From Cyanidioschyzon merolae (Eukaryota): a DNA stretch of 64,000 nucleotides. The translations under genes were made by a program, and so were the position numbers. The stretch lies in the NCBI GenBank assembly GCA_000091205.1, contig AP006496.2; one strand, written 5' to 3'. This document shows, piece by piece, positions 9,907-58,581 of this stretch (the first letter of the stretch is position 1; each line of letters opens with the position of its first letter). The notes beneath the pieces were generated by a model, which did not search any database, was not told where the DNA came from, and saw nothing but the letters and a program-made list of their open reading frames with translations.

Positions 9907-10279
9907 GTAGAGAAAAAGAACGTGCTGATATAGCGACTGCATACGCGATCTGCGTAGGCAGCGATGCCCTGATGCCCCTGTCCGTAAAGATCCTAAATAT
10001 CGAAGATCTAAACACACCCCTGAGGCTCTGCAGCACAGGCCAGCGGGAGAACGTGTACTCCGGTGCGCGCGGAGACTGCCAGCCAGCTGGACGCAGCGTT
10101 GTTCGCGTCCCTTAGCTGAGCACGACTAGCGGGGCTCAAAGGTCCCCTTTTCTGACGCAAGCGCTTGGGGTTGTTGCTCTGGCACCAGTGCGCATAAGGC
10201 CCTGTGCGAAGCAAGCAACACTGTTGAAGGGCGAGCAGCGAACGACGACGCATACGCGACGGTTTCGCTCAAGATACTC

Positions 10280-40407: not shown

Positions 40408-41679
40408 TCAGTCCATGAGCGGGAAAAGATACTCTTTGACAATATCACGCAGTAGAATGCGGGCATCGTCTGCCTGCAGATCACGTGTATCTGCAAGCAA
40501 GCACCTGACGCGCTCCGCGGCATTCCTCACGTTCTCGTCAACGACGGCACATGTTTGAGGGTGCTCCTGGTCAGACAAGCGCTGCATCCTGCGTACGCGA
40601 TGATTTGGTGATGGCGGTGGCCGCCTGGATGCACTGCTTGGCGCTGGGGGCGGCGAAAAACTCATATTGACGGCGCTCGTGCCGGCAGTAGCCTGCTGGG
40701 TCCGTTGGGCGTTCGCCTCAGAGGCGAACTCGTCGCCACCAGTGGACGCATGTGCGCTACACGACGCTGCGGAGCGACTGCGGAGACGCTGCATCGTGCC
40801 GGCAGCAGCAGCGTGACGGCGTGAGCACAGCATTTGCCGCAGGGCGACTTCGAAGGCCTCGGTTTTCGCGACAGCATCTGAGAGCGCCTGCACTGTACTC
40901 GCTCGGGTTGCAACCGTCTGCGATGTCGACAGGATACATGGCCAATCGCGCTGTTTGATCCAGGATAACATGGATGCATCGGCAGGCATGCCGAAGTAGT
41001 GGACAGTTAGTTCGTAGTACGCTGGGGCGCCCTGCTCAAACTCGAGGAGGTAGTCGAGAGGCACACGCTCGTGGCGCACCTGCACTGAAGGTCTGCTGCG
41101 CGGGAACGGCCGGTACCCCTGGGGATAGACGCGGAAAGCGCGCAGCGCAACCTGCCCGACTCGGCGGCTCCGGACCGGGTCCACGATGAGGATCACCCAG
41201 GGTCCTTGGCCGCTTTCCTGAACAGCACCGTGACTTGCCAGTTCACTTCGGCTGAGCCAGCAGCCGTATCCGTGATGCGAGCGGTACCAGCCGACAGCGT
41301 TCAAGGCGATGCCCGGCGTCAGTAGCTGCGAGCGGTTCTCGGGCAGTTGAGCGTCGCGCGCTGGTGACACTGGTACAGGCACTGTACCTGGAGGCGCGCA
41401 AGCAGGTGTCGCGTCCCAAACGACGACCGCTCGGCTCGACGCTCCTGGCGGCACGAAACCCCATAAAACCCCTTGTGTTTCTGTTGCGGAACACTGTTCA
41501 AAGCAGTGGCTTGTCACTTCGCTCAGCGCGAGCACCGAAACGTACACGTCGCGAAACGTGGTCGCTGTCGTTTCGGAACCCTGTTCGGACTCGTGCAGTA
41601 GCGTCGCTGTGCGCTCCAGCAAGGAGCCTGTCTCGCGGAGGCGACGCCAACCGCTAGGGTATGCGACGCGCTCGAGCAT
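40408..41679 (-). CDS. CSN5/Rpn11-like MPN-domain protein with a degenerate JAMM motif
   Basis: [13 protein letters not shown] aligns with the CSN5 block NLEVMGLMLGKV containing the conserved Glu. [19 protein letters not shown] aligns with CSN5 [51 protein letters not shown] aligns with [42 protein letters not shown] aligns with QYYALEVSYF. ATG start verified. Confidence 0.8.
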   Translation of the reverse strand: [423 protein letters not shown]

Positions 41680-41989
41680 AGTCGACTAGGTGCAGAAAGC
41701 TTCGACGGGTCCGAGCGTCGTCACCGGACCTTGTTCGAAAAGCATTCTCATTCGTTGGACAAGCTTTGCAACGTAGTGTTCGCCCGCCGTCTGGTACGGC
41801 GTTTCGCCACCACAGCGGGGCGTTCTCGCGAGAACTCGAAAGTCGAAAGAGCCGCCGCGCAGCCGAATAAGTGCACGCTGGTATCGTATTGCGTGGGCTT
41901 TGTTTCGTACCAGGTATCTAGTGATTCACAATGTGTTCAGGAGTCATCGTTCATGAGCAATGAATCTTTAAAATTCCTGGTTCAGCATG

Positions 41990-43137
41990 AAATGGAACGC
42001 TGAACTTGTCGATCTGTTCCTGCGTATCGATTGGGTTTTCCGAACGATTTACCAGAGACAGAGCTTCGAGATTCGCAGTGCAGCAATACGGGATTACGGA
42101 TTCATAGATAATTTCAGGAGTTTCCATCGTCTTGTCGCGGAAATTCAGGATGCCAAGGATATCGGGGTGATTCGCAACACACTCGAACAAAGGCACCTCA
42201 AATAGATGATCGTATCTTCCAGTGCATACGCACGAGGCTCCGCTCTCCTCCAATCCCTGCGGTACCAGCATGCTCTAATCAGGTATGCTTCGGGTTTTCG
42301 ATTTCTGTGGTCCAAGGCAACTCGCGGACGCGACAATGCGCGCTGTTGAATGGACGAGGAAGACAACTCGGCGTCGTCGTTTGAAGAGTTGTTGCATGGA
42401 GAAGGGTCCTGGATGCTGACTTGAGGCATCGCAGCGATCGACTCGAATGGAGTGTCGAAGGAGCAACCCATATCGACCGGATTTCCATACTGGATTTCCG
42501 TCTCGGTTCTTGGTTGTGCATGGAGAACATTGCGTTCAGCAAATCCTCTATTGATCGGAAGGGCGTGCGCTTGCTTGTGAAGCGAACAGCGTACCCGCCT
42601 ATGCGACTGCCCAGAGGAGGCTCGTATCGGAAGTGTGCGGCACTCGGCATTGAGACTGAGGCAGATATCATGGGGCGCCCTCTCTACCAGTCCGGGGCAC
42701 GTACCGGGCGAAGAAGCGAGCGGTGACGCACCCCAGGGCGGCGCTCGGAGGCGGAGGCGGCACGGGAGGCCCACGGGAATACCCTGCGGTAGCCGAACGA
42801 TACCCCGACGAATTCGCTCCCCGGATTCATACAAAGCAAAGGCACGTAGTAAGGGAAACATGTATCGATTGTGACGCCAATGCATACACTGCATGAAGAA
42901 CTGCTGCAGGCGGCGACCTTGCGACTCGAACGCTGCCATCAAAGTCCTTCGACTGCTGCAAACGTAGCCAGTTCGAAAGGAACGACCGAGTTGTTCACAG
43001 CCGGCGCTCAGAGAGAGTCTAAAGGAAGCGGTTGCCGAGAAATCCCGCATATATCGGTGTTGATCACAGTCGAAAGAAGCCAAACCAGTAGCGTATACGC
43101 CCGAGTTGTCAAACTGGACCCATTCCATCTCAGTCTG
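41990..43137. repeat. Inverted repeat arm A (1148 bp); partner at 53790..54937
   Basis: Reverse-complement comparison gives coordinate pairs x+y=96927. Boundaries are at 41990/54937 (outer) and 43137/53790 (inner). About six substitutions were seen in 1148 bp. Confidence 0.9.
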
Positions 43138-43443
43138 GTATGGCTCCATCATAACCCTGGACCCCCGGGTGTGCGTGTGCTATCAATAACCATCGGGAGA
43201 CCGCAGTTCCATTTTAGACGTCGCCAGGTGCTGCTCATCCTGGAACCGTGTTCAGCTCAATACCAGCGAGCAAGTCGATGGAGCGATCGCCCTTGGCGTA
43301 CGTTTTCGCTGGCGAGGGCGTTGCAGATGCGCCTCTCGCTGGCCAGCCTGCGGAGATGCAACATTTTTGTAATCGTAGTAGGTAGCGGGTCTGGGAAGTG
43401 GTACCAGGACGGCTCGTTTCTCTTGACTAGACGCGCATGGCTC

Positions 43444-45714
43444 ATGACGACGTACTTCGATCGGCTGCTGGCGTCGCTTTCTTCAGCGCTCGAGATTAAT
43501 GCAGCGACGCTGAGCGGTGCTGCGGATATCATCGTCATCCAACAGCCCGACGGACGCCTGGTGTCGACTCCGTTTCACGTCCGTTTCGGTAAACTGCAGT
43601 TACTTAAAAGTCGCGAGAAGGTCGTGGAGATTGAAGTTAGTCCGCTTGATGAAGTTGAAGCGGTAGCGGTAGCAAAGCAGCTGGAGCGCTCCTCCACGGC
43701 GAGCACCGGGCCACCGCCACCCCAGAGCCTAGAAACATCACGGGGCACGTACAGGGCACCGCTTACCATGCTGCTTGGCTCAGCTGGTGAGGCTTTTTTT
43801 GTAGAAGAGACATCTTCGGAGTCTACCGTCGAACTCGAGGGACAAACCCCCGGCGAGGCAATATGGGTGGAACGCGCCCCCAGTGAGCCACCTTCACCCT
43901 GCAGCGAAACCTTCCGCGACTGGCGCTCAGCAGCTGAGCCCAGTGCCGCGTCAAGCTGCCGAGAAGAGTCCCAGAGCGCCTTTAGCGATAGCGAGCAGCC
44001 CACTGGAGCCGAACGCCTCCAGCTGCCTCCGTCGGACTCCGCAGACCTGAGGGCATCCTCGCAACCAGAGTCGCGATGGAGCAGCCGCTTCGGCAGTATG
44101 CTACGAAGGCAACGTCAAACGGGGGCGGAAACACGCTCCTCATCGAGCACTCCGACAGATGTCATAACTTTGGGGATAGAGTCGCTGACGTCATCGCCAC
44201 CGGCCGCTGCACAGCAACAAGCTGAACTGCTGGCATCGCGGGCTTCATCGCGATCCTCACTAGAGGGCGAGAGGTCTCCCGCAGCTGGCGTGGAGTCGCT
44301 TGTCTTTGAAATGGATGACAGTGGCCAAGCGATGACTGAGTCCAGTGTACCGGAAGTTGCAGCCGCTACCGCACCCGCACCCGCAGCATTCACGAGCGCC
44401 ACGGATGTGCATGCTGTCGGCAAGCCCCCCGTTGCCTTGTCGCTATGTGGGCACTTGATCACACCCCAAATGACCCCTGTACAAGTACATGAGGTATTCG
44501 AAGCAAACCGCATATCCCTTGATTACTTTCGGGGTCATGTTACCATTCTCAATCATCCAGATATTCTGGTACGCATTCATGACCAAATCTACCCGCTACG
44601 AGTCGCAACACCGTTGCTGTACGGCATGTTGGCCTTTAACACGGTGCTTGATCCCCATGCGGTCGATCGACAAACAACAGCACCAAAAGCGCGACCGCCG
44701 AGAGCGCGTTTTACCTGGTTCGGGCTTCGAAGCAGTCAACTAGAGGACTCTAGTACCGATTTGTTGCAGCTGGGTGAGCCACTCACGGAAGCGGAAACTG
44801 AACTCAAGCCACCGATGGAAACAAGCACGACCAGCACCGCCGAAGCGAAGCAACATCTGCTGCCGCTGCACCGACCGCGATACATGCGCAAGTCGTTGTA
44901 TCCGAGTTCTGCGCAGTTGGCGCAACTCGGCCTGCGACCCGGAACTAATCTGATCACGTTCACAGTGCAGAGTCGATTACAAGGAGTTCAACGAGTTTGT
45001 AGTCGAATCTATTTGTGGCCCCATGATGTGCGTCTATGCATCAGCGACGTCGACGGTACCATTACACGTAGCGATGTGCTTGGACAAATTCTCCCGCGTG
45101 TCGGCAAGGACTGGAGTCATCAGGGCGTCGCCAGTTTGTATCGAGCCATCGCTCGGAACGGGTACAAGTTTCTCTATTTAACATCGCGTGCGATAGGACA
45201 GGCGTCGGCTACTCGAAGCTACTTGACAACGCTGCAGCAAGAGGGGGGTCTTGGTCTTCCCGACGGGCCGCTCCTGCTCTCCCCGGATCGGGTGATCGAG
45301 TCTTTCACGCGCGAAGTGCTTCGACGGCGTCCGCAAGACTTTAAGATTGCAGCATTGGAGCAGGTCCGTCGACTCTTTCCACCGGGCAACTACAATCCGT
45401 TTTTCGCGGGTTTCGGGAACCGCGACTCTGACCGCATCGCCTATGCGGCCGTTGGGGTGCCACCAGAGCGCGTCTTTATTGTGAACGCTCGCGGCGAGCT
45501 GCAGGTGGGTAACCACGTATACAGTGCGCTCTCGTCGTTCAACGCGCTGCAGAAACTCGTTGACTCCATCTTTCCCGACATTTCCACCGTTTCTGGGCAG
45601 CAGAAAGTAATGGAAGTTCACGAAGCGCATGCCTTTAATGATTATCAGTATTGGAAGCGACCCTATTCACCGACGGGAAGTAGCAGCGACGCTGTATCGC
45701 GTTTCTTTTCGTAG
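43444..45714 (+). CDS. LPIN: Lipin / phosphatidate phosphatase (Pah1/Ned1 family)
   Basis: The N-LIP block is GAADIIVIQQPDGRLVSTPFHVRFGKLQLLKSREKVVEIEV. The C-LIP HAD catalytic motif is ISDVDGTITRSD (DxDxT), followed by FFAGFGNRDSD. The CDS is started at the ATG at 43444, because the ORF-track N-terminal 191 aa lie inside inverted-repeat arm A and are unrelated to lipin. Confidence 0.9.
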   Translation: MTTYFDRLLASLSSALEINAATLSGAADIIVIQQPDGRLVSTPFHVRFGKLQLLKSREKVVEIEVSPLDEVEAVAVAKQLERSSTASTGPPPPQSLETSRGTYRAPLTMLLGSAGEAFFVEETSSESTVELEGQTPGEAIWVERAPSEPPSPCSETFRDWRSAAEPSAASSCREESQSAFSDSEQPTGAERLQLPPSDSADLRASSQPESRWSSRFGSMLRRQRQTGAETRSSSSTPTDVITLGIESLTSSPPAAAQQQAELLASRASSRSSLEGERSPAAGVESLVFEMDDSGQAMTESSVPEVAAATAPAPAAFTSATDVHAVGKPPVALSLCGHLITPQMTPVQVHEVFEANRISLDYFRGHVTILNHPDILVRIHDQIYPLRVATPLLYGMLAFNTVLDPHAVDRQTTAPKARPPRARFTWFGLRSSQLEDSSTDLLQLGEPLTEAETELKPPMETSTTSTAEAKQHLLPLHRPRYMRKSLYPSSAQLAQLGLRPGTNLITFTVQSRLQGVQRVCSRIYLWPHDVRLCISDVDGTITRSDVLGQILPRVGKDWSHQGVASLYRAIARNGYKFLYLTSRAIGQASATRSYLTTLQQEGGLGLPDGPLLLSPDRVIESFTREVLRRRPQDFKIAALEQVRRLFPPGNYNPFFAGFGNRDSDRIAYAAVGVPPERVFIVNARGELQVGNHVYSALSSFNALQKLVDSIFPDISTVSGQQKVMEVHEAHAFNDYQYWKRPYSPTGSSSDAVSRFFS

Positions 45715-46086
45715 ATGGGTGGATGTTTTCCTGCCTGCGGACTGTACTTGGACGCTTCTGGGTCGATGCGCGGCTGCACGCTGAGCACGAAGCTATCGAA
45801 TAACCGCAGTACGGGCTGCCTGATCACTGCGATACTTGAATGGGCTCGTTGTCGTCCAGAGACGGTTGAGAGGCGCCACCAAGGTTGGTTGGTTGGTTGG
45901 TTCAGTGTCTGGGCACACACTGGCCACAAGCGTGGCGCTGCGCAACGCAGGAATCTTGCACTGGTCGATGTATCCCCGAGGCAAGTTCTCGACGCAATGC
46001 TGCAACTGTTTGAGAACGCAGATAGCCACGGGTTGAGCATTGCTACCCATCAGTACGCCCTCGTTCGTAGCAAATCCCAAGCGGGT

Positions 46087-47340
46087 TCAAGCATCGGACT
46101 GATCACTGTGATGCTTGGTTCGCTCCTCCCAGGACGTTGCCGGGAGGTTGCTCCAGAATGCTGCCGGTCTCTGGACAAAATATCGCGGTGCTCGACGATG
46201 GGCACGCTGACGCCTATTCTCGCGTAGCAGTGTAAAGTACGGCAGACAGCACAGGAGAAAGGCAGCCGCGTTGGACACCAGCAGCATGACCAGGTCGGTC
46301 CACCAGAGCACGTTACTGCAGCAGGGCAGCTTCGACGCGACCGCCGCTGCACTGCAGGTGCAGTCGGGACCACAACGACCAAAAGGCGTTTTGCCCGACA
46401 CGGCATTCACAATGAAAATAGCCTCAGTGATGATGAGTGAAAGGAAATACGACAACAATACCGCGGCGCCGATGATGCCGGCGAGGCCGGTCGCCTCCAC
46501 TGGTCGCTTTGCGATTCTTGTGAAAGCAACAAGAATGAGCCCGTAGCCGCCCACCGAGAGCCATAGAACTGCGGTGGTGTAGAGGGTCACCCCCATGGAT
46601 ACCGAGCACGGAGTCGCGTGACGATAACGATCCGCAGAAATGATAATAATGACGACAAAGGGCCAGACAAAGAGGGCCAATGCCAACATGGTGACCCCAA
46701 AGGCGAACAGCAGCAGACGCTTCAGGTTTTCGCGACTGGAGAGATGGCGCTGGTGAAAGCGACCCAGCATGTCGCCAACGTTGCGGCCCAGGCGACCGGG
46801 CTTGAGATTCCCCGCAAAATGTCGCCAGGAAAAATCCTGCAAGATGAGTTGACTTCCGCGCCAACGTACCGGCTTGGCGGCAACCTGACTCGAGTCCATG
46901 TTCGAACGTTGCATCTCTGCAATCTGCTGAGCGTACCAGTCGGAGGTGAAGAGCTGACCACCGCTCGGAGACGTTCCGGTTTCGGGCACGGAGGTGCCGC
47001 TTCTGTCTTCGTCCAACGTTTCTGGGCGCTGTAATGAGTGCAGACTGAACCCGCTACGCTCTTGTTTCGCAGTCGCTGTGTAGAGACGCTCGGCATATTG
47101 ATAGAGGGCAAGCGTTTCTGGCTCGGCCTCTTTCTGGAGCCAAGTATTATACAGATGCTTTCTGCGGAAAGTACTGGGGTCTGTTTCGTACGAACCAGAT
47201 GGAAGGGTTAATGTGGGCGGATCTCCAGCGATACTGGAGATGTCCGGGCCTGTCGCTTGCGCATCCGCTGACCCCAGCGCTGCCTGCAGCTCCACGAGGG
47301 ACGGAACGCGTCTAGGCGCCCGCTGTTTCGCCGCATCCAT
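46087..47340 (-). CDS. Hypothetical four-pass membrane protein with a Cys-rich loop
   Basis: Four hydrophobic segments (LLLFAFGVTMLALALFVWPFVVIIII, VTLYTTAVLWLSVGGYGLILVAFT, GLAGIIGAAVLLSYFLSLIITEAIFIV, WTDLVMLLVSNAAAFLLCCLPYF) follow a 190-aa soluble N-terminus. The loop between the third and fourth segments is GRCGPDCTC...CC. ATG start verified. Confidence 0.5.
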   Translation of the reverse strand: MDAAKQRAPRRVPSLVELQAALGSADAQATGPDISSIAGDPPTLTLPSGSYETDPSTFRRKHLYNTWLQKEAEPETLALYQYAERLYTATAKQERSGFSLHSLQRPETLDEDRSGTSVPETGTSPSGGQLFTSDWYAQQIAEMQRSNMDSSQVAAKPVRWRGSQLILQDFSWRHFAGNLKPGRLGRNVGDMLGRFHQRHLSSRENLKRLLLFAFGVTMLALALFVWPFVVIIIISADRYRHATPCSVSMGVTLYTTAVLWLSVGGYGLILVAFTRIAKRPVEATGLAGIIGAAVLLSYFLSLIITEAIFIVNAVSGKTPFGRCGPDCTCSAAAVASKLPCCSNVLWWTDLVMLLVSNAAAFLLCCLPYFTLLRENRRQRAHRRAPRYFVQRPAAFWSNLPATSWEERTKHHSDQSDA

Positions 47341-48387
47341 GGGTGCTTTCAGAGCGAGCCTGCCACTGTCCAGGGCGAGTTCCGTTCATCGTCGTGCTCC
47401 CGCGCGGGAACAGTGACCACCAGCACCGGAGAACGGCGTTGGATTTCGCACCAGTTGCCACAGGTACAGAGGACGTCGCTAGGCGTGAAGTCGCAGTGTG
47501 CGGATTCAGCAGGTGCTGGGGCAAGAGAGCCAATCAGGGCGGGATGGAAACCCCAAACGACAGAGGCCTCCTCGTCGACTCGGCAGATTCGTGACGCACT
47601 GAGCGCCGTGTACGATGCAGCGCCTCTAATCAATACTAGGTCGCTATTCGGTAAGTCAGGTGTAAATATCACCGCTGTTGGAAGCGAGTTCGGCGTTTTC
47701 GCGGAAGCGCCAGGTACTGCACGTAGCTTCCGCGGTGGCTCCTCGTTCAGACCAGTCCCGGGTCACCTGTTGGTGTATCGCTATTCAAAAACACAGGTAT
47801 GCGGCCAGGCTGGCAGTTTGCTCCGAACAACCAGCGTCGCGGTTGAGGGCGTCAGCCACGCTCTCTTCGTGGTGCGTTGCGGCTTCGCGACTGTGGTCTT
47901 CTTGACCAGTTTCCAAGCCCTGGCAGGAGTTGCGACCCTTGTGTACAATACAAATACAGACCAAGCTGACGCCCGAGACCGGTCCAAGGACCCCGTGTGT
48001 GCTTCCCAGGCTCCGGGTGTGTAGGCGCACTATAAGTGCGTCTAGCTAGCCTTGCCTGGGTACGAGCGTGTGTAGCCAGACCTCAGACCAGAGACCTCGG
48101 TGCCTCAGGGGACGCTTCCGTGCTCCAATAACCCCGAGCGGTGTCTTTTCTCAGAAACAGAGGCAGCTTTCAGACTCCGTAACCCAGTCCAGGCTTACGA
48201 GCTGCAGCCCGAATGGCAATGCGAAGTCGAGTAGCACACCGTTGGCGGTTTGATGCCCGGTGCTGGCGCCCGCCGGTCGAGAAACAGCACGGTGCCCGGG
48301 ATTGGCGTCGGAAGCCCAGTTGCTGTTGTTGTTGGGGTTGCGGGTGCACTGGGGTAGCGCCTGGTGCACAGATAACTGCTCGTTGCC

Positions 48388-49875
48388 ATGGAGGCTGTCA
48401 CCGGTTCTGATCCGTCCGATCCTCTAGTTGCAGACGTCCTGGGCTGTGGTCAGCTGGACCTCACTCGAGGGCTCATGCAACGGGCGTCTTCGGGGCCGCG
48501 TTTGCGACCTGGAGGGCGATTCCGTCAACACGCTGCCGCTCTGGAGGCGCTAACGAGGCTGCGGCAGGATCTAGAAGCTGAGGGTCCAGAGTCGAGTGCG
48601 ACTCAAGGGCAAAATACCGGTGTCAAATGGGACGTTCGCCACCCAGCGTTTGATCCTCGAAGCTATCTGTTCGAGGTTCACGTGGACACGTCCTATCAGG
48701 AGCTGGAACGCGGACTAGAGGAGTTAGCGCAGCGGAGGCAGCGTCTGGAGAAAGCGTACCTGCAAGCGGCAGTGCACTCACTTCCTGCGTACCTGACGAC
48801 AATATTCACGCTACTCCCGGAACTGGAACCGTCCGGTTCAACCTCAGGGCGAACGCATCCACTTGAGCAATTAGAGTCAACTTTTCGAGGGGCGTGCGCG
48901 CAGCTCAGAGATTTGTTCGAAACCTACCACAACATTGGGGTTTCGTTGAGCGCTTGGCAGTATACCTCTGTGCGGATGCGTATCGATCCCGAGATCGGAA
49001 TGATGTACAGACGGTTTCTGACTGCGCTGTTCGAGAGCGATGCAGCAGCAGCAGCTGCTGCTGCTGCTGCTGCCGCCGTGAGCTATAATACATTGATAGA
49101 ATTACGAGCTCAGGCACGCAACGGGCTTGCTCAACGTGAAGCGTCCTCGACAGGGACACGCGAGTGGACCGACGTGACTCTCCGCTCGATGGAGTTCCTG
49201 CTTCAGAGGCTGCGTTTCTGCCCGCGATTCCAGAATGGAGCCGCGTCGATTCCGTCCGCTGCTTTCTGGAAGAGCTTCGATGAAACCGTCGAGCAAATCT
49301 GGGCAGAATGCACTGAACCACGCCGCACGGTCGAGACGTTTTATCTCCTGCGTTTGGACGTTGCCAGTGAGACGCTTCGGGAACGTTGTGACGCACATGC
49401 GCTGCGTCTGAAGAGCACCATCTTGCGGAGCGCCTTATCCGCAGTGGAAAACACGAAAGCAGAGGTACCGGCTGCCGAGTGCAAGTTCACATCAGAAATA
49501 CCTTATACGGAGGTTTTCGCGGCGGCAGCCCAACTCGTTCTTGCGTACCTGCGGAAAGAGGTGATTGGAATGAGCCAGTTCGTTGCGAACCTTTTACACT
49601 ACGTGGATGCGGCACGTCAAGCCCTGCTTGGCCCGATTTTGAACGATGCGGAACGCGAAGCGTCGGCTCGACTGGTCCAAGTCCTGCGAGCATTCATCGA
49701 AACCTGCATAGATATATCTAGGGAGGCGATGGACGCAAATCGGTGGAAGCTGCTGGCTCCAGACGCCTTAACGCCAGAGCTATGGGGCTCGGAAGCGCTA
49801 GCAGAGCGTCTGAAGGGTCTTCTGGAGACCAGTCTGCAGGCTTTGGGGCAGATTCCTTCTGGACGAAGCAGTTGA
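48388..49875 (+). CDS. Hypothetical coiled-coil protein with a weak CATCHR/Vps51-like N-terminal motif
   Basis: FDPRSYLFEVHVDTSYQELERGLEELAQRRQRLEKAY resembles the FDPxxYL signature of tethering-complex subunits. An internal Ala12 tract is present. ATG start verified. Family assignment is weak. Confidence 0.35.
   Translation: MEAVTGSDPSDPLVADVLGCGQLDLTRGLMQRASSGPRLRPGGRFRQHAAALEALTRLRQDLEAEGPESSATQGQNTGVKWDVRHPAFDPRSYLFEVHVDTSYQELERGLEELAQRRQRLEKAYLQAAVHSLPAYLTTIFTLLPELEPSGSTSGRTHPLEQLESTFRGACAQLRDLFETYHNIGVSLSAWQYTSVRMRIDPEIGMMYRRFLTALFESDAAAAAAAAAAAAVSYNTLIELRAQARNGLAQREASSTGTREWTDVTLRSMEFLLQRLRFCPRFQNGAASIPSAAFWKSFDETVEQIWAECTEPRRTVETFYLLRLDVASETLRERCDAHALRLKSTILRSALSAVENTKAEVPAAECKFTSEIPYTEVFAAAAQLVLAYLRKEVIGMSQFVANLLHYVDAARQALLGPILNDAEREASARLVQVLRAFIETCIDISREAMDANRWKLLAPDALTPELWGSEALAERLKGLLETSLQALGQIPSGRSS
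49042..49077. repeat. (GCA)4(GCT)6(GCC)2 trinucleotide tract encoding Ala12, containing a perfect 26-bp palindrome (49042..49067)
   Basis: gcagcagcagcagctgctgctgctgc is its own reverse complement. Confidence 0.9.
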
Positions 49876-50580
49876 AATAGCGCAGAGGCACGGAGCAGCG
49901 TTCTCATCAAAGCACTCGAAAATTCATGGATATCTGCATCGCATCGTTGCGGACATGGCGAAAGCGTCTCTGGAGGAGGCACCGCGGCGCTGCGACACAG
50001 CTTCACTACGCCTAACTCAAGCTGATCAAGTGCCCAGTGCGCCATACTCGTTCCAAGAAAAGTCACTGACCGATCGCTCTCGACCTGCGTCACACATGTT
50101 GTTACCCGCTTTTCGACGAAGCGTACTGAGCAGAAGATTGAAGTGCGCTGCGAAAGAGACAGGCGAAAGAAAGCGACTTTTGTGACAAACAGGTCATTGT
50201 GTTGTGCGCCACACGCCAGTAGAAAGATAAAATTGGCACCTTTGCATGCGGATGTGGAAGGGTGCCACTGCCTTACCGACTGGAAAAGTTTGCGGGTGCC
50301 TCAAGTCGCTCATACGGGTCGGGGTGTTTCGGAACCACAGCAGTCCCCGGGTACGATCCTTGAACCCGGGGCTCGATGCTGGTGCTCGTGCAACCCGCAG
50401 TGCGTCTTGGCGAGCGGCCTCTGGGATCGTCGGGGTCTGCGCACCTCTCTATCGCAAGATTTTATCGACGACGGGGATTCGTAAAAGCCTGTATTGAAAG
50501 TATGGAAAGCAAGGGGGGAACACAAGCAGCACGGCAGCGGGCGCGCCCGTGATCCAGTACTGGGCATCCGCCCGTTTTCG

Positions 50581-52617
50581 CTAGTCCGATGACAAGGAGC
50601 CCGCGAGCCGCTGAACGATGCATATATTCGCATCTGGCGGCAAACGATGCCCAGTCGAGTCGAGACGGTCCTCCCAGTGATGACCATCAGCATCGGTGTG
50701 GTACCGAACATGCCAGGTCTCGCCGGCGGTGTTGCGACCCCATCGACAACCGTGGTACTGCGGATGCTCGGCAGATGAGTCGGCGCGGCGGCTTTCAAAG
50801 TACCACTCGTACCATACTTGGGATTCGTGATTGTGTGGCAAGATTCGTGCATCCACACCGAACTTGTCCCCGAAACGGAATAGGACCTGGGGTTGGTTCT
50901 CGAGGCGGTACTCGCCATGACGCTCGAGCCACCAGTTGCCGTCTGGGTTACGTCGTACGCGGGCATCCTGCCACATGAGCGCTGAGAGCAACGGAAGACT
51001 CTGCATCGGTCCTGTGGGGAACGAGTCCACCGGTTTCGCATTGCACTCGGCAGCGGTACTCGACTGGCAAGGCAGCGCCGCATGGACGCCATCCTGGGCG
51101 CCTTCATGTTCAGAGATCGAAAGCGCACTGAGTGCAGTCATCGCGCCGGCGTATCGATCGGGGTGGCGTGCATGTCCGCAGGCCTCGATTTCCAGCGGAT
51201 GCTCGTTCGCTTCGTGGGAACTACGGGTAGAATGCGCACTAGGAGATCCCGAGGGAAAAGTGGTCCCTATGATTGACGCCAGATGCTCCCAGGGGCAATC
51301 GCTGTTCTCCTTTTCGGGCTCTGCAAGTGAGAAGCCAAGCGCCGATAGGCTTCTGCTGCTGCTGCTGCTGACGTTCTCGAAAACGGGCGCGTATAATTCA
51401 GCTCCAGGCATCGGCAACGAATACTGGATGCTATCATCCCAAGACGCTGGCAGAGATGCGCGTTTGCCCATTGGCCCTTTGCGGGGACCTGACTTCGATT
51501 GCTTCTCGGGTACATCTTGATTCCTTTCGCACAGCACTTGTATTTGTGGTTTGCTTTCCAGGCGCGCTCGGAATGGCGCTTGATTCTTCTCTATCTGCCC
51601 GAAAACTGTAGGGAATGCGAGATTCTCAGTTGTATGGACATTGGCGGATCGATGGTCCATCAGTTCTGAAGCAGGTAACTCGCTGCGGTGCGCTGTGTAT
51701 TCTTCATTCGTCGGTATCGCCGCGTCTTCGGAGTCGTCATTGGAATCCGACAAGGCGACGAAAGTGGCGCTGAGGGATAGATCATGCAGATTCGCATAAT
51801 GGCGACTATGGCGTCGGTACCACAGACGCTCGAGACGGTCGGGATCGTGCAGCTTCCGGCACGCGATTGTCTTGAGTGTCGGCCATGCACGCGCGCTGTA
51901 CAGCCGTACTGGCTTGGGTAGAGGCAGCAGCGGCAGCAGCCAATAGCACGGTTGCACATGCCGTATGACAGAAGCAGCCGATGCAGGGCTTTCAGGGAAC
52001 CTGCCTCTCGCAGGAGTGCGCTTGCGGCAGGAGCGGGCGAAGAGCGCGCTTCGCTCCTCACGCTCTCGGCTGCGTCTGCGCAAGCTGATGAGCACCAGCA
52101 CCCAGACGACCATCCAACCAGCTACATGGAGTGCAACAGGCACTCTTGGGAGCTGGAGCGGCGCGTGCTGCGAATGCCATCGCTCAGAAGCGCTCCACCA
52201 TGGGAGCCAAGAGTCCCGTCGAGCAGCGACCGCTCCCGATGGGAACGCCTCCGAAGCTGGAAAGCTGCTAGGTTCATGCAGGTCCACCGATAGCACGCAC
52301 CCAGACTGCGGCTCTAAAGGCCTGTAGAGTGTGCGGCCTTTCGTTCCTGTTGGAGCATCCCCGATCCCGTAAACAGAGCCCGCTGTATGCTCTTCTATTC
52401 CGGTTGACCCGGATGCCTCGCGCAGTTTCAGAGACTCGCGTTTTGAATGCCGCCTATACGGTGCGCGTGTTTCATGCAGCCGAAAATGGTCTTCGTTCAC
52501 GTTCGTTGGCGCATAGAGCGCAGCGTCGCGACCGTCTCGAGTTGCACGACCTCCGACGCCGTACGGATGCATATCCGGGGCGGTTTCCGACCAGGTTTCG
52601 CGCTGAGATCGCTGCAT
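50581..52617 (-). CDS. Hypothetical single-pass membrane protein with a Trp-rich C-terminal region
   Basis: The TM segment is LHVAGWMVVWVLVLISLRRR. The C-terminus carries repeated W/E motifs (WWLERHGEYRLE...VWYEWYFES...WHVRYHTDADGHHWEDR). The ORF-track start at 52707 is GTG; the first ATG is at 52617. Confidence 0.4.
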   Translation of the reverse strand: MQRSQRETWSETAPDMHPYGVGGRATRDGRDAALYAPTNVNEDHFRLHETRAPYRRHSKRESLKLREASGSTGIEEHTAGSVYGIGDAPTGTKGRTLYRPLEPQSGCVLSVDLHEPSSFPASEAFPSGAVAARRDSWLPWWSASERWHSQHAPLQLPRVPVALHVAGWMVVWVLVLISLRRRSREREERSALFARSCRKRTPARGRFPESPASAASVIRHVQPCYWLLPLLPLPKPVRLYSARAWPTLKTIACRKLHDPDRLERLWYRRHSRHYANLHDLSLSATFVALSDSNDDSEDAAIPTNEEYTAHRSELPASELMDHRSANVHTTENLAFPTVFGQIEKNQAPFRARLESKPQIQVLCERNQDVPEKQSKSGPRKGPMGKRASLPASWDDSIQYSLPMPGAELYAPVFENVSSSSSRSLSALGFSLAEPEKENSDCPWEHLASIIGTTFPSGSPSAHSTRSSHEANEHPLEIEACGHARHPDRYAGAMTALSALSISEHEGAQDGVHAALPCQSSTAAECNAKPVDSFPTGPMQSLPLLSALMWQDARVRRNPDGNWWLERHGEYRLENQPQVLFRFGDKFGVDARILPHNHESQVWYEWYFESRRADSSAEHPQYHGCRWGRNTAGETWHVRYHTDADGHHWEDRLDSTGHRLPPDANICIVQRLAGSLSSD

Positions 52618-53196
52618 ATCCCCTGTCAATGATTCAAAGAAAAAGTGTCTACTAGTACACGTCACCAATAGTTCCTGTAGCGTCAATAGAGCAGTTTCGT
52701 TGGTCACTGCTTAGAAACGCAAGGAATATGAATGCCAGTTGCATGTGGCGATAACGGCTGTGCCGTACGCGTGGCATGCACGGATCAGCGAGATCGCCTG
52801 GCGGGAAGCCGCCATACGATGCGTGCATGCGTACGTGCGTGCGCGATTCCGCAATGCGTAACGCCTCGGCGGTGCGCCGCGCGTTGCTGATCGCTATCGC
52901 ATCGCAGTCTTTGCCCTCAAAAGTGTTCCGCATTCAGGTGCATGTCATCAAATGCTTTTTCGCTGCTTACCGCGGACGCATGCAAAGTGCTTTCGTTTGA
53001 AGTGATGAAAAAACCAGGGGAAAGTATGGACATGCAAGTCGGGAATCCTAGGGGGGTCGTCATCGCCGGGTGCAGGAAAAACAACAAAAAATCCTCTTCT
53101 CGTTGACTCTCGAGCGAAGAAGAAGAACAATGGACGAAGAAGAAATGAGGAGATCGTCGAGAAAAGGCGTTTGCCCGATGGAACGATGACGAGACT

Positions 53197-53700
53197 TTGG
53201 CGCCATACAGGGCACGAGTCCGAGGACTCTTTGTATCAGTGAATTCCACCAGCGAGAACGAACGCATAGAGTTCGTGAACAGAGACTTCAACATCGCCAT
53301 AAAAATCCGACGATGTGCGGTACTGAAGACAAGACCCGCAGGGCTGTGGCTATCTAACTTTATGGAGCAGCCTCTCGGGCTCGAAGCATACGATGAGAAG
53401 CTGAAGCAGATAGCACGTGTACAGTCGCAAAAGGCTGAGAAGCGTCTGCGCCTGGGTAGATATACATCCTCGACATGGTCCTGCGACCTTTACGCAGCGT
53501 CCAACGAGGTACTGGGATCGAGGTGGCACGAGAGAGCGCCCGCGTTCGTGCGAGCTTTAGCGCGCAGCTTCAGTGTGCATGGGGATCCCGCAACTGATGG
53601 CACGTGGGTCAACTGGGCCGCTTCAGCTGCTACCCGAACGCCAATATGCAGAAGCTCCCTGCCTCTTGTGATTCGCTTTGCACATGTATCCGTCTTCTGA
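53197..53700 (+). CDS. Questionable small ORF next to inverted-repeat arm B
   Basis: The track start is TTG, the first ATG lies far inside, and there is no recognisable domain. It is listed only because it fills the last 600 bp of the inverted-repeat-bounded segment. Confidence 0.12.
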   Translation: MAPYRARVRGLFVSVNSTSENERIEFVNRDFNIAIKIRRCAVLKTRPAGLWLSNFMEQPLGLEAYDEKLKQIARVQSQKAEKRLRLGRYTSSTWSCDLYAASNEVLGSRWHERAPAFVRALARSFSVHGDPATDGTWVNWAASAATRTPICRSSLPLVIRFAHVSVF

Positions 53701-53789
53701 ACAGGGGCATTTCTGTTATTTCCATTCAGAGGCAGATCAAGGAAAGACAGCGAGAGTGAATCAGTGCACAGAAGGGTTTACGCTAATGT

Positions 53790-54937
53790 CAGACTGAGAT
53801 GGAATGGGTCCAGTTTGACAACTCGGGTGTATACGCTACTGGTTTGGCTTCTTTCGACTGTGATCAACACAGATATATGCGGGATTTCTCGGCAACCGCT
53901 TCCTTTAGACTCTCTCTGAGCGCCGGCTGTGAACAACTCGGTCGTTCCTTTCGAACTGGCTACGTTTGCAGCAGTCGAAGGACTTTGATGGCAGCGTTCG
54001 AGTCGCAAGGTCGCCGCCTGCAGCAGTTCTTCATGCAGTGTATGCATTGGCGTCACAATCGATACATGTTTCCCTTACTACGTGCCTTTGCTTTGTATGA
54101 ATCCGGGGAGCGAATTCGTCGGGGTATCGTTCGGCTGCCGCAGGGTATTCCCGTGGGCCTCCCGTGCCGCCTCCGCCTCCGAGCGCCGCCCTGGGGTGCG
54201 TCACCGCTCGCTTCTTCGCCCGGTACGTGCCCGGGACTGGTAGAGAGGGCGCCCCATGATATCTGCCTCAGTCTCAATGCCGAGTGCCGCACACTTCCGA
54301 TACGAGCCCCCTCTGGGCAGTCGCATAGGCGGGTACGCTGTTCGCTTCACAAGCAAGCGCACGCCCTTCCGATCAATAGAGGATTTGCTGAACGCAATGT
54401 TCTCCATGCACAACCAAGAACCGAGACGGAAATCCAGTATGGAAATCCGGTCGATATGGGTTGCTCCTTCGACACTCCATTCGAGTCGATCGCTGCGATG
54501 CCTCAAGTCAGCATTCAGGACCCTTCTCCATGCAACAACTCTTCAAACGACGACGCCGAGTTGTCTTCCTCGTCCATTCAACAGCGCGCATTGTCGCGTC
54601 CGCGAGTTGCCTTGGACCACAGAAATCGAAAACCCGAAGCATACCTGATTAGAGCATGCTGGTACCGCAGGGATTGGAGGAGAGCGGAGCCTCGTGCGTA
54701 TGCACTGGAAGATACGATCATCTATTTGAGGTGCCTTTGTTCGAGTGTGTCGCGAATCACCCCGATATCCTTGGCATCCTGAATTTCCGCGACAAGACGA
54801 TGGAAACTCCTGAAATTATCTATGAATCCGTAATCCCGTATTGCTGCACTGCGAATCTCGAAGCTCTGTCTCTGGTAAATCGTTCGGAAAACCCAATCGA
54901 TACGCAGGAACAGATCGACAAGTTCAGCGTTCCATTT
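53790..54937. repeat. Inverted repeat arm B (1148 bp); partner at 41990..43137
   Basis: See arm A. Duplicated ORF-track proteins agree: 42145..43152(-) matches 53799..54782(+); 42279..42671(-) matches 54256..54648(+); and the first 89 aa of 42871(+) match 53778..54056(-). Confidence 0.9.
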
Positions 54938-57131: not shown

Positions 57132-57159
57132 TGCGTGCGTGCGTGCGTGCGTGCGTGCG
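57132..57159. repeat. (TGCG)7 microsatellite upstream of the RhoGAP start
   Basis: tgcgtgcgtgcgtgcgtgcgtgcgtgcg is read directly. Confidence 0.9.
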
Positions 57160-57243
57160 TTCGCGCGCGCTCCTTCAGTCGAAGCTTCACCAGCGGCACG
57201 TCTCTCGTGCTGCTTCAGCTGTTTGTTGGTGTCGATCAGGAGC

Positions 57244-58581
57244 ATGTTGCCAGACACTGTCGTTCCAGCAGAGATACGTAGAGAAACCTCTTGCACTTGT
57301 GATGCTGAAGCGTTCAACGCGACGACAAGAGATATGAGCGCTGTGTCCCAAGTACCTGAGGTCTTGGCGACTGCATTGCCCGTGGCGGGTAGCGCAGTGG
57401 CGGGCGTAGCTGCAACCCCCGACTCTTTGACACAATCTGATCACCAGGTGATCCCTGGAAGCACATTACCTGTGACGTCGTCAACGACAGCGGGGCGCTT
57501 TCAAAATATCGAAGATGGAACAGAGCCAACTGCGAGTGCGTCGTCAGCACTCCGAGTGACGCTGATTGGGCGCGATAGCCTGCGGCCCGAAGGGAAGGGT
57601 CCCGGGCAGGGCGGCCCACCGGTGCGTACCGAAGTTGCGAACCGGGTGAAAGTGTTGCTTTTCAAGCAGCTGCAGAACGGTATTCATCCTGGAGGTGGGC
57701 ACAAATCTGCGGCATCGCATACTGAGCGCCTGGTCGTGAACGAGCCGGAAGCTCCCCACGGGTGTTTCTGTCGACGAAGTAGCAGTGCGCACCGCACCCC
57801 AAAGCCTGCAGTGTCGGCGCCAGCAAGCGCGTCCCAGGTCGACGACGAATCAGCACCCATTGCTGCCTGTGTTCTATTCGGGACGGACCCACAGCAACCC
57901 TGGAATCGTTCCGCCGTGCACCGCATCAGGCTTTGCGTTCGCCATCTTCGCGAGTGTCGCGGCTGTGAAACACCTGGTATTCTCGGAGCGTCCGGATCGG
58001 CGGGAGAAGTCGAACGACTCCGACTGCAGACTGCACATTCCGGGAGTCTTCCGACGCAGGCAGACCCGCATTCGATCGCGGGGCTCCTGAAGGACACGCT
58101 CCGGCGAACGCGTCCTGCACTGTTGTCATCAGATGGCTACCAGTGCTTCCTCGAAATGGCAAGGAAAAGCGGCCCGGGTACCTCCTGGGATGAGGCCATC
58201 AATATTTTCCGTCTCTGGCAACGTATTAGTGCGAGTCAACCGCATTCCTACTGTCGAGATGTACTTGTAGAGATTTTACTCCTGCTCAACGAGGTAAGTC
58301 GCCTCAACGACATCAACAAGATGACGAGTCGCAACCTGGCGGTGGTCATGGCGCCCTGCCTTTGTGACTGGGACCCGCTCCGGCCGAATGCGCTCGAGCA
58401 ACTGCATGTCATGACGGATATGGTGCAGTATCTGATAGAACGCGCGAAATTCGTCGCGGACATGGAGGGTCACCCCGGTACTGGACACGAGCGCATCAAC
58501 CTCGCACCGGTCTCTTGCGCGTACCATTCGAGCGCCGAGTCGCTCAACGCTGCGACCGTGAAACCGCCATGCTACGCGTAA
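57244..58581 (+). CDS. RhoGAP-domain protein with the arginine-finger position substituted
   Basis: TPGILGASGSAGEVERLRLQ aligns with the p50RhoGAP block TEGIFRRSANTQVVREVQQK, HSIAGLLKDTLRRTRPALLS with LPAVILKTFLRELPEPLLT, and DINKMTSRNLAVVMAPCL with QNKMTNTNLAVVFGPNLL. The ORF-track start at 57139 is a GTG inside the (TGCG)n microsatellite; the first ATG is at 57244. Confidence 0.8.
   Translation: MLPDTVVPAEIRRETSCTCDAEAFNATTRDMSAVSQVPEVLATALPVAGSAVAGVAATPDSLTQSDHQVIPGSTLPVTSSTTAGRFQNIEDGTEPTASASSALRVTLIGRDSLRPEGKGPGQGGPPVRTEVANRVKVLLFKQLQNGIHPGGGHKSAASHTERLVVNEPEAPHGCFCRRSSSAHRTPKPAVSAPASASQVDDESAPIAACVLFGTDPQQPWNRSAVHRIRLCVRHLRECRGCETPGILGASGSAGEVERLRLQTAHSGSLPTQADPHSIAGLLKDTLRRTRPALLSSDGYQCFLEMARKSGPGTSWDEAINIFRLWQRISASQPHSYCRDVLVEILLLLNEVSRLNDINKMTSRNLAVVMAPCLCDWDPLRPNALEQLHVMTDMVQYLIERAKFVADMEGHPGTGHERINLAPVSCAYHSSAESLNAATVKPPCYA

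Follow-up and report, generated by a model that had tools for sequence, protein, structure and literature searches.

Gene order shows a derived four-gene inversion between near-identical inverted repeats on chromosome 14 of Cyanidioschyzon merolae

In Cyanidioschyzon merolae 10D, a 10.6-kb block of four genes beginning with lipin is, by gene order, a derived inversion with one arm of an inverted repeat at each breakpoint. Inversions with repeats at the breakpoints are a well-known kind of rearrangement; this small case is apparently unreported. The reading that we prefer, at a probability of just under 0.6, is that the arms are inverted copies of a repeat unit of the C. merolae lineage and that homologous recombination between them inverted the block. 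The analysis covered a window of 64,000 nucleotides, assigned to C. merolae 10D chromosome 14 by exact protein matches to the finished record (852,727 bp). The features discussed are collected in Table 1.

Table 1. Positions in the window of the repeat arms, the block, its flanks and two family relics.
Feature	Position	Strand	Description
Tom37/metaxin-like gene	38462-39913	+	Left flank, beyond CMN059C
CSN5-like gene, CMN059C	40408..41679	-	JAB domain; left flank
Arm A	41990..43137	-	Complete unit of ~1.15-kb repeat family; carries CMN060C
CMN060C	42145-43152		Annotated orphan ORF of arm A, 335 aa; first 5 codons outside arm
Lipin / phosphatidate phosphatase, CMN061C	43444..45714	+	Pfam Lipin_N, Lipin_mid, LNS2; first gene of the inverted block
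p417, CMN062C	46087..47340	-	417-aa hypothetical protein; 60% identity and relative order kept in Cyanidiococcus
p495	48388..49875	+	495-aa protein; weak Sec5-like match; 32-34% identity to Cyanidiococcus-clade syntenic gene
p708	50581..52707	-	708-aa ORF; 33% identity to Cyanidiococcus syntenic gene; last conserved gene of the block
Segment G2	53005..53410	.	Inverted paralogue of 36846-37252, 71% identity
Segment u	53431..53789	.	Unique, ~360-376 nt, between G2 and arm B
Arm B	53790..54937	+	Second family unit, in the opposite orientation to arm A; carries CMN065C
CMN065C	53799-54782		Annotated orphan ORF of arm B, 327 aa
RhoGAP gene	57139..58581	+	Right flank; followed by tRNA-Val and UTP20
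Relic 1	15680..16825	-	Decayed arm-family member, 65-72% identity, alignment over about the full arm length; argC-formin intergenic space
Relic 2	29716..30758	+	Decayed arm-family member, 66-69% identity

The repeat pair and its assembly

A repeat search of the window returned the arms as a single inverted pair of 1148 nt, 99% complementary, around a spacer of 10652 nt, which confirms the near-identical arms and the limits given for them in the first-pass annotation. That annotation had put the substitutions at about six; ungapped comparison counted seven, equivalent to 99.39% identity (42176, 42412, 42618, 42694, 42790, 43056 and 43099 in arm A coordinates). The arm ends are sharp, with 19-31% identity over 300 nt past each end, and the window contains no N. 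Arm A is flanked by the CSN5-like gene at its outer end and by lipin at its inner end, while the inner end of arm B points toward segment u and p708 and its outer end toward RhoGAP. The gene content read from the letters was essentially right, including a small doubtful ORF in the spacer besides the four genes. Arm A was correctly placed between the CSN5-like gene and lipin (41680-43443), but that interval is occupied in the reference annotation by a separate gene, CMN060C. Lipin is 68% identical to its Cyanidiococcus orthologue, and CMN061C has been listed as a phosphatidic acid phosphatase (PMC4928187).

Near-identical repeats are a classic cause of assembly errors. An artefact in the repeat or in the orientation of the reference is, in this case, scarcely credible. 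The reference chromosome is a finished record, and each of the four junctions between arm and unique sequence is also present in independent assemblies that are 98.8-99.7% identical to the window. The CSN5-arm-lipin linkage was found in 16 independent contigs and the u-arm-RhoGAP flank in one (L014), and a further contig, L021, runs from arm through u and the block to arm.

Gene order in related algae

In the C. merolae window the order is Tom37(+), CSN5(-), arm A, lipin(+), p417(-), p495(+), p708(-), arm B, RhoGAP(+), UTP20(+). In Cyanidiococcus yangmingshanensis it is UTP20(-), RhoGAP(-), lipin(+), p417(-), p495(+), p708(-), CSN5-like remnant(+), Tom37(-). A second alga of the Cyanidiococcus clade has the same RhoGAP-lipin-p417-p495 order, on contigs that stop inside the p708 gene, and Cyanidium caldarium also keeps the RhoGAP-lipin adjacency. 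In all three, lipin and RhoGAP are divergent neighbours, and in Cyanidiococcus the CSN5-like gene and Tom37 adjoin the block at p708 instead of at lipin. Relative to its flanks, the lipin-p417-p495-p708 block is thus in the opposite orientation in two Cyanidiococcus-clade species. The 10D order is therefore the derived one, and a single inversion, broken at the arms, accounts for it. Comparison with relatives therefore upholds an inversion of the repeat-bounded segment, as had been proposed from its geometry.

The models invoked for it fared less well. The segment had been compared with the 2-micron plasmid and with the inverted repeats of plastids, or alternatively regarded as a recent foldback or composite insertion. 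The idea that a mobile element of this type, or a cassette inverted by a site-specific recombinase, as with 2-micron FLP/FRT or a bacterial invertase, brought in lipin and its neighbours draws on the bare geometry of kilobase inverted repeats around a gene block, and we consider it very improbable. The cargo consists of host genes that are syntenic in three other species: its order is conserved in the Cyanidiococcus clade and the RhoGAP-lipin pair also in Cyanidium, so the block is not an insertion. Moreover, the region belongs to a nuclear chromosome, Pfam detected no recombinase, transposase or integrase domain in the ORFs of arms or spacer, and neither terminal inverted repeats nor target-site duplications were found at the arms.

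Origin of the arms and exchange between them

Each arm is one whole unit of a repeat family that is confined to the C. merolae lineage, dispersed and for the most part decayed. The stretch that matches three old relics starts no more than ~30 nt from the inner end of the arm and stops no more than ~25 nt from the outer one; the argC-formin gap, the site of relic 1, is only 47 bp long in Cyanidium. An exhaustive HMMER search found at least nine more degenerate copies on metagenome contigs, none of them an NCBI-annotated protein. Intergenic repeats have expanded to 12.7% of the C. merolae genome, versus 0.59% in Cyanidiococcus (PMC9812998). No other near-identical copy was found: all family members other than the arms are at most 70% identical and thus unable to act as recombination partners.

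Seven sites separate the two arms of 10D, and 7-18 separate arms at the same position in different strains; the two arms of L021 differ at 4 of their first 213 nt. Strain-specific variants are common to arms in both contexts, and the arms cluster by strain, not by position. This pattern, formed by few sites, suggests arm-to-arm gene conversion, and such exchange is probably how the two copies became or remain 99.4% alike.

The arms also contain the orphan ORFs CMN060C and CMN065C, which show little sign of coding. If these were a duplicated, fast-evolving gene pair under protein selection, the location of the breakpoints would be incidental. Indeed, the 327-codon ORF is open in every strain sampled, its frame scores best of the six, five of the seven substitutions that separate the 10D arms are silent in it, and degenerate family copies have a short motif in common in the same frame. 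However, 7 synonymous changes across strains stand against 15 non-synonymous ones, many of them radical (chance expectation, 24% synonymous), and substitutions between arm and relics lack three-base periodicity. The codon-usage score is -0.006, compared with 0.06-0.19 for real genes of the window; the ORF has no Pfam match and its AlphaFold model a mean pLDDT of 32. It is also very unlikely that both inversion breakpoints would land by chance on the sole two intact copies. Protein selection is thus an improbable explanation for the arms.

Nineteen contigs span a whole arm (99.0-99.7% identical), and 17 of them have the 10D linkage. The other two, of 54 and 59 kb and from two samples (JGI 3300005573 and 3300005861), join lipin, arm and RhoGAP in the ancestral-type linkage. 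They are 99.1-99.5% identical to 10D, make the join through a single arm, and stay collinear with 10D beyond this arm for 7-9 kb toward RhoGAP and for more than 10 kb toward lipin. The reciprocal CSN5-arm-u linkage was found in 0 of the 19. These contigs suggest that conspecific chromosomes with the ancestral linkage exist; the joins may also be short-read misjoins inside the 1.15-kb repeat. Neither contig is a clean flip of 10D, since both depart from it again near 53413-53431. This second point, where the alternative haplotype ceases to match 10D, coincides with the outer edge of G2. To its left, the alternative contig L020 has an unrelated region instead of u and an arm, with an old family relic and an NHL/arylesterase gene for which no counterpart of at least 90% identity was found among NCBI-deposited proteins. 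Segment u is present in the repeat-pair haplotypes 10D, L014 and L021, and missing from the sequenced part of L020. At least one further rearrangement therefore separates 10D from the alternative haplotypes. Nor do the haplotypes of the block sort by arrangement: over 9.4 kb L020 matches the repeat-pair contig L021 without a difference, and L019 comes nearest to L012, a contig of the 10D type.

The genomes behind the two alternative contigs may hold one arm copy only, which would favour an origin by duplication with inversion. According to this explanation the repeat is a product of the inversion: one unit between RhoGAP and lipin was duplicated in inverted orientation in the same event, by staggered breaks on either side of it or by a replicative, transposition-like copy beside CSN5, and the arms are the scar. 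The topology is as predicted, with one arm still at the old junction on the side of RhoGAP and the other at that on the side of lipin. The alternative contigs, with one arm between both "native" flanks at their assembled length, fit a single copy. There are no young copies beyond the arms (the 90% protein cluster has no members besides CMN060C, CMN065C and the variants of these among strains), and the arm divergence of 0.61% resembles the 0.3-0.9% between strains. Staggered breaks are documented for Drosophila inversions (Ranz et al. 2007, PMC1885836). On the other hand, duplication of exactly one complete family unit, with ends within ~25-30 nt, is not expected from random staggered nicks. 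The transposition version finds no support in terminal inverted repeats or in target-site duplications, the latter absent at both new junctions in either orientation. Strain-specific variants common to both arms, without clustering by position, indicate that the arms recombine however they arose. The alternative contigs, for their part, are rearranged at their left end and do not represent a clean "before" state. Altogether, we regard a repeat created by the inversion as possible but rather unlikely.

We infer instead that recombination between pre-existing arms caused the inversion. With an identity above 99% and opposite orientations, the copies could be paired by the general homologous-recombination machinery. 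A non-crossover outcome, gene conversion, would keep them alike, and a crossover would invert the 10.65 kb spacer. The block may have flipped recurrently.

Comparison with known inversions, and consequences for lipin

The closest parallel is the "flip/flop" region of Saccharomyces chromosome XIV (Salzberg et al. 2022, PMC9731477), likewise in a unicellular eukaryote with a compact, highly collinear genome. In both cases a multi-gene block lies between near-identical inverted repeats derived from a fast-evolving, often-duplicating, lineage-restricted family. In yeast the arms of a given strain have been homogenised, and SNP trees do not place strains of one orientation in a single clade (PMC9731477); similarly, C. 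merolae arms do not cluster by position nor block haplotypes by arrangement. The yeast region is larger (4-kb arms and a 24-kb, 15-gene block, against 1.15 kb, 10.65 kb and four conserved genes). Its arm genes are functional sporulation genes, whereas the C. merolae arm ORF is almost without coding signal and its family resembles decayed interspersed repeats. Both clean isomers are shown in many yeast strains and species (PMC9731477), while the alternative C. merolae form is represented by two metagenome contigs with a second breakpoint.

The inversions described in PMC3961182 also have highly identical inverted repeats with breakpoints inside them, arms that exchange sequence through gene conversion, and possible recurrence; they concern another organism and another scale, and recurrence is only hinted at in C. 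merolae. The Drosophila inversions (PMC1885836) have in common with C. merolae an ancestrally single-copy sequence flanking the segment as an inverted duplication, each copy keeping one ancestral junction. In C. merolae, unlike these, the duplicate is a complete pre-existing family unit at both ends, with signs of later exchange. Sex-chromosome palindromes (PMC3723533, PMC8981503) likewise have arms more than 99% identical, kept so by intrachromosomal gene conversion, and show rare spacer inversions. They measure tens to hundreds of kilobases, with short spacers on non-recombining chromosomes, whereas the C. merolae arms are short, with a spacer nine times as long, and lie on an ordinary chromosome.

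The inversion separated lipin from its divergent neighbour RhoGAP and placed it beside the CSN5-like gene, with the p708 end facing RhoGAP. The first-pass annotation expected such a turn to rewire the promoters of flanking and terminal genes. This is largely not to be anticipated: lipin has the same 306 nt plus an arm upstream in both arrangements, and RhoGAP has arm B plus 2.2 kb. Since each arm retains its own unique flank, inversion of the block would bring little rewiring of proximal promoters.

The inverted pair and its gene content

The window was placed by exact-sequence matches on chromosome 14 (852,727 bp) of C. merolae 10D, which is a nuclear chromosome. The likeness to plastid inverted repeats that had been drawn in the first-pass annotation thus does not apply, and Rfam matched neither rRNA nor any other RNA family over the window. 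A repeat search of the 40-57 kb region returned a single inverted pair (1148 nt per arm, 10652 nt spacer), exactly where it had been proposed and with the proposed spacing. An ungapped comparison of arm A, on the lipin side, with arm B, on the RhoGAP side, gave 99.39% identity; the near-identity reported earlier stands, with seven mismatches in place of about six. Outside each arm end, identity over 300 nt falls to 19-31%, hence the repeat has sharp ends.

The window contains no N. All four arm/unique junctions recur in many JGI, ENA and Logan assemblies, at 98.8-99.7% identity to the window, so that an assembly artefact, which had been considered, can be set aside. In addition, a single 12-kb contig (L021) runs from an arm through u, the unique stretch beside arm B, and the gene block into a partial arm.

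As the C. merolae genome is nearly without introns, the ORF map could be used as a gene map. The block between the arms comprises lipin, p417, p495 and p708. The best named relatives of the lipin are found in cyanidiophycean red algae: Cyanidiococcus yangmingshanensis (68%), a second Cyanidiococcus-clade alga (67%) and Cyanidium caldarium (53%). In PMC4928187, CMN061C appears as a phosphatidic acid phosphatase.

Features of the chromosome 14 locus (coordinates in the window)
Feature	Coordinates	Strand	Remark
Arm A, ORF CMN060C	41990-43137	-	335 aa, annotated 'hypothetical protein'
Arm B, ORF CMN065C	53790-54937	+	327 aa, annotated 'hypothetical protein'
CSN5-like gene, CMN059C			annotated 'similar to COP9 signalosome subunit Csn5'
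Lipin ORF, CMN061C	43444-45714	+	Lipin_N, Lipin_mid, LNS2 domains (Pfam)
p417, CMN062C		-	417 aa
u	53431-53789		unique, between G2 and arm B
G1 / G2	36846-37252 / 53005-53410		inverted pair, ~410 nt, 71% identical
Relic 1	~15680-16825	-	decayed arm relative
Relic 2	~29716-30758	+	decayed arm relative
Inward ORF, arm A	41987-42205	+	enters from just beyond the outer end
Inward ORF, arm B	54722-54970	-	enters from just beyond the outer end
Direct repeat	7945-9933 / 27294-29283		~1990 nt, 99.2% identical, 19.3 kb apart
Tandem duplication	19700-19789		exact, 45 nt, in formin (FH2) ORF
Short direct repeat	62399-62438 / 62513-62552		exact, 40 nt, 114 nt apart
tRNA-Val (anticodon AAC)	59868-59942	-	between RhoGAP and UTP20

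Several other features of the window were recorded. The tRNA-Val gene accounts for a conserved island of 90-120 nt near 59.9 kb, 87-95% identical across species amid unalignable intergenic DNA. The tandem duplication in the formin ORF produces an in-frame repeated stretch of 15 residues. The short direct repeat falls within the UTP20-collinear region, and one of its copies carries a mismatch in contig L019. A second near-identical repeat, this one direct, holds no ORF above ~190 aa, and its second copy stops ~430 nt ahead of relic 2. At G1 and G2, JGI gene callers place an ORF of 171-224 aa.

Gene order in relatives and in conspecific contigs

In C. yangmingshanensis the genes are arranged as UTP20(-) RhoGAP(-) lipin(+) p417(-) p495(+) p708(-) Tom37(-), every orthologue being confirmed by tblastn with the window proteins, and a CSN5-like remnant is found on the + strand between p708 and Tom37. 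This counterpart (19695-20123 of contig L002) has apparently shrunk to a 142-aa ORF, versus 423 aa in C. merolae; the match, at 41% identity, is confined to the C-terminal 70 residues, and the annotation has no gene at this place. The second Cyanidiococcus-clade alga, whose lipin shares 78% identity with the C. yangmingshanensis protein, keeps the order RhoGAP-lipin-p417-p495 as far as its contigs reach. Its three independent assemblies end at the same point, ~1.3 kb past the p495 homologue and within the stretch of the p708 homologue that encodes its C-terminal part, which suggests a repeat or structural polymorphism in this alga too. In the outgroup C. caldarium the order is likewise UTP20(-) RhoGAP(-) lipin(+).

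The window reads Tom37(+) CSN5(-) arm A lipin(+) p417(-) p495(+) p708(-) arm B RhoGAP(+) UTP20(+). Taken on the opposite strand, its flanks agree with those of the other species and the lipin-to-p708 stretch is reversed. Since only this stretch is reversed between matching flanks, the 10D order is the ancestral order plus one inversion. The breakpoints (RhoGAP|lipin and p708|CSN5) coincide exactly with the positions of the arms. Both orientations of the block relative to its flanks are therefore seen, clearly so between species, with Cyanidiococcus, the second Cyanidiococcus-like alga and Cyanidium on one side and 10D on the other. The synteny comparison that the first-pass annotation had recommended thus revealed a block inverted relative to the Cyanidiococcus clade.

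The same comparison disposes of a composite or foldback insertion carrying lipin and its neighbors, which had been offered as another origin of the structure. Indeed, the supposed cargo is old resident sequence, syntenic in Cyanidiococcus-clade species, with lipin and its RhoGAP neighbor also present in Cyanidium. Moreover, no terminal inverted repeats were detected at the arm ends, and a search of every junction for target-site duplications, direct or inverted, was negative.

The arrangement within C. merolae was followed in 19 fetched contigs that span a whole arm. The 10D state was found in 17 of them, either as lipin flank-arm-CSN5 flank (16 contigs) or as u-arm-RhoGAP flank (1 contig), and the remaining two join the lipin flank through an arm to the RhoGAP flank. 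The reciprocal CSN5-arm-u linkage was seen in 0 of the 19, a limited sample, and the contigs retrieved with the commonest CSN5 variant were all of the 10D type. When the JGI metagenomes were scanned with a 40-mer from the arm, three contigs were recovered, two of which were extended.

The two alternative contigs, Ga0078972_1002912 (53.9 kb) and Ga0080006_1118312 (59.3 kb; L020), read p708(+) p495(-) p417(+) lipin(-) arm(+) RhoGAP(+) UTP20(+). Both match the window from 53132/53449 down to 41990 and then, by way of one arm, from 53790 up to 64000/60842, at 99.1-99.5% identity. Past the arm, collinearity extends over 7-9 kb towards RhoGAP; on the lipin side it exceeds 10 kb. They show the ancestral orientation with a single arm between RhoGAP and lipin, and are not a clean flip of 10D. 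Indeed, left of ~53413-53431, L020 carries an unrelated region in place of u and the arm, abutting the p708 end of the block. The switch point coincides with the edge of the duplicated segment G2, and the unrelated region holds an NHL/arylesterase gene of 816 aa together with an old relic of the arm family.

This NHL/arylesterase-repeat gene (L020 1-3885) adjoins the p708 end of the block in conspecific contigs. Its 90% cluster contains JGI and Logan members and no NCBI-deposited sequence, 10D included. As orthologues exist in Cyanidiococcus and Cyanidium (42-51% identity), 10D may have lost the gene.

The alternative contigs are short-read metagenome consensus sequences, in which assembly may have left a 1.15-kb repeat into the wrong flank. 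Two observations speak against such a misjoin: 17 other contigs leave the arm with the 10D linkage (16 through arm A, 1 through arm B), and the two alternative contigs have in common an independent junction on the NHL side. We put the chance that the lipin-arm-RhoGAP linkage is real at roughly three in four. Block haplotypes did not sort by arrangement. L020 is identical over 9.4 kb to L021, which has the repeat pair, and diverges only near G2; the contig nearest to L019 is the 10D-type L012. Each alternative contig is thus nearer to a repeat-pair contig than to the other alternative, a pattern expected from recurrent re-inversion, which metagenome consensus chimeras or ordinary recombination could also produce.

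The arms as repeat units

A sensitive self-comparison detected two decayed relatives of the arms in the window (relics 1 and 2, 65-72% identical), and the relic in L020 is a third. In the alignments, homology to the relics starts at most ~30 nt from the inner arm end and stops at most ~25 nt from the outer end. Since these limits coincide with the arm ends, each arm is one complete unit of the family. Relic 1 sits between argC and the formin gene; the gap between these genes is only 47 bp in Cyanidium, a difference that fits an insertion in the lineage of Cyanidioschyzon. Exhaustive HMMER searching gave nine weak matches besides the arm's own cluster, all of them short ORFs on metagenome contigs. 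As they are at most 55% identical to any known copy, they represent at least nine further degenerate copies; one additional match, in a plant, is due to chance. Neither blastn nor tblastn, at E-values up to 10, detected the family in orthologous intergenic regions of other species. Repeats in intergenic DNA make up 12.7% of the C. merolae genome, versus 0.59% in Cyanidiococcus (PMC9812998), and the arm family fits this published expansion. In the absence of terminal inverted repeats and target-site duplications, the family cannot be assigned to a class; unit ends also carry no poly(A) tail.

The arm ORF is open in all strains and ranks first among the six frames. Its codon-usage score is -0.006, compared to 0.06-0.19 for real genes. 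Within the 10D arm pair alone, 5 of the 7 differences are synonymous, a signal that is lost when more strains are included (7 synonymous versus 15 non-synonymous polymorphisms). Substitutions between arm and relics lack three-base periodicity, Pfam has no match to the ORF, and a word-indexed protein search with it returned only its own 90% cluster. A single-sequence AlphaFold model was unusable (pLDDT 32). CMN060C and CMN065C are thus probably repeat-derived ORFs of doubtful function rather than conventional genes. Each arm is also entered by an inward ORF of 72-82 aa, called as a gene by JGI pipelines. In both contexts its start codon falls within unique flanking sequence. With a codon-usage score of 0.07, its composition is the most protein-like that the arm contains.

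Comparison of 10D with the other assemblies shows 26 variable positions in the arms, distributed in a mosaic pattern. Several variants are common to both 10D arms and differ from most other strains, and others occur in the arm-A context in one strain and in the arm-B context in another. The two 10D arms differ at 7 sites, and arms at the same position in different strains at 7-18. The closest relatives of L014 (arm B) are L012 and L013 (arm A), with 4 differences; the two arms of L021 differ at 4 of their first 213 nt. Based on the distance matrix and the shared variants, the arms seem to cluster according to strain and not according to position, the outcome that gene conversion predicts. This evidence is thin: sites are few, and 10D is the only strain with arms A and B on one complete contig.

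Mechanism and significance of the inversion

The best-supported mechanism is general homologous recombination between inverted copies of the repeat unit that are more than 99% identical. Gene conversion between the arms would keep the copies alike, and a crossover between them would invert the spacer. The inverted repeats themselves and the opposite orientation in relatives agree with this proposal of the first-pass annotation; the missing CSN5-arm-u linkage does not. Its comparison to the 2-micron plasmid, whose FLP/FRT system is, like the bacterial invertases, a site-specific inversion system, found no counterpart, as Pfam detected no recombinase, integrase or transposase domain in any spacer gene, in either flanking gene or in the ORFs of the arms. 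The predicted rewiring of promoters would also be minimal proximally. Every arm moves together with the unique sequence beside it, so that lipin has the same 306 nt plus an arm upstream in both arrangements, and RhoGAP has arm B plus 2.2 kb.

In the main rival explanation, the second arm was born in the same event as the inversion, via staggered breaks, as in Drosophila inversions (PMC1885836), or via a replicative copy. The topology fits this origin equally well. A single-arm haplotype of ancestral type would favor it, and the alternative contigs do have one arm between RhoGAP and lipin, their CSN5 side lying beyond the sequence covered. However, both arm ends are repeat-unit ends within ~25-30 nt and not arbitrary nick positions, a target-site duplication is absent, and the arms bear signs of later exchange.

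Among known systems, the nearest parallel is a 24-kb flip/flop region on Saccharomyces chromosome XIV. It lies between the copies of a 4-kb inverted repeat that homogenises itself and is built from a gene family in rapid evolution (PMC9731477). The general class also takes in inverted-repeat-mediated inversions in humans (PMC3961182) and arm conversion in palindromes (PMC3723533). The mechanism is thus ordinary and of a kind already known, but the chromosome 14 inversion of C. merolae appears to be unreported. The literature searched does not mention CMN060C or CMN065C. Published comparisons could not have reported the inversion, because one took only blocks of at least 5 genes (PMC9812998) and the other, relying on whole-genome dot plots, described rearrangements on chromosomes 3 and 19 only. 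The known inversion between 10D and MS1 is on those two chromosomes, and is not this one. A link to mating type was also discarded, the candidate region lying between CMK076C and CMK078C on another chromosome.

A bolder reading makes the CMN060C-CMN065C interval a true flip/flop segment that re-inverts recurrently in natural populations of C. merolae, the first described in a red alga, maintained by a self-homogenising, lineage-specific repeat pair, with orientation variants segregating among crossable strains. We regard this as unlikely on present evidence, at about one chance in four. If true, recombination would be suppressed locally and the long-range context of lipin, a phosphatidate phosphatase, could change.

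C. merolae 10D is a model for an "extremely simple" genome, and very recent work has established a sexual cycle with crosses between 10D and Yellowstone strains (PMC13353863). Consequences of the inversion would be expected for recombination in such crosses, for gene targeting by homologous recombination near lipin, and for short-read assembly. It would also be a concrete case of a Cyanidioschyzon-specific repeat expansion altering gene order.
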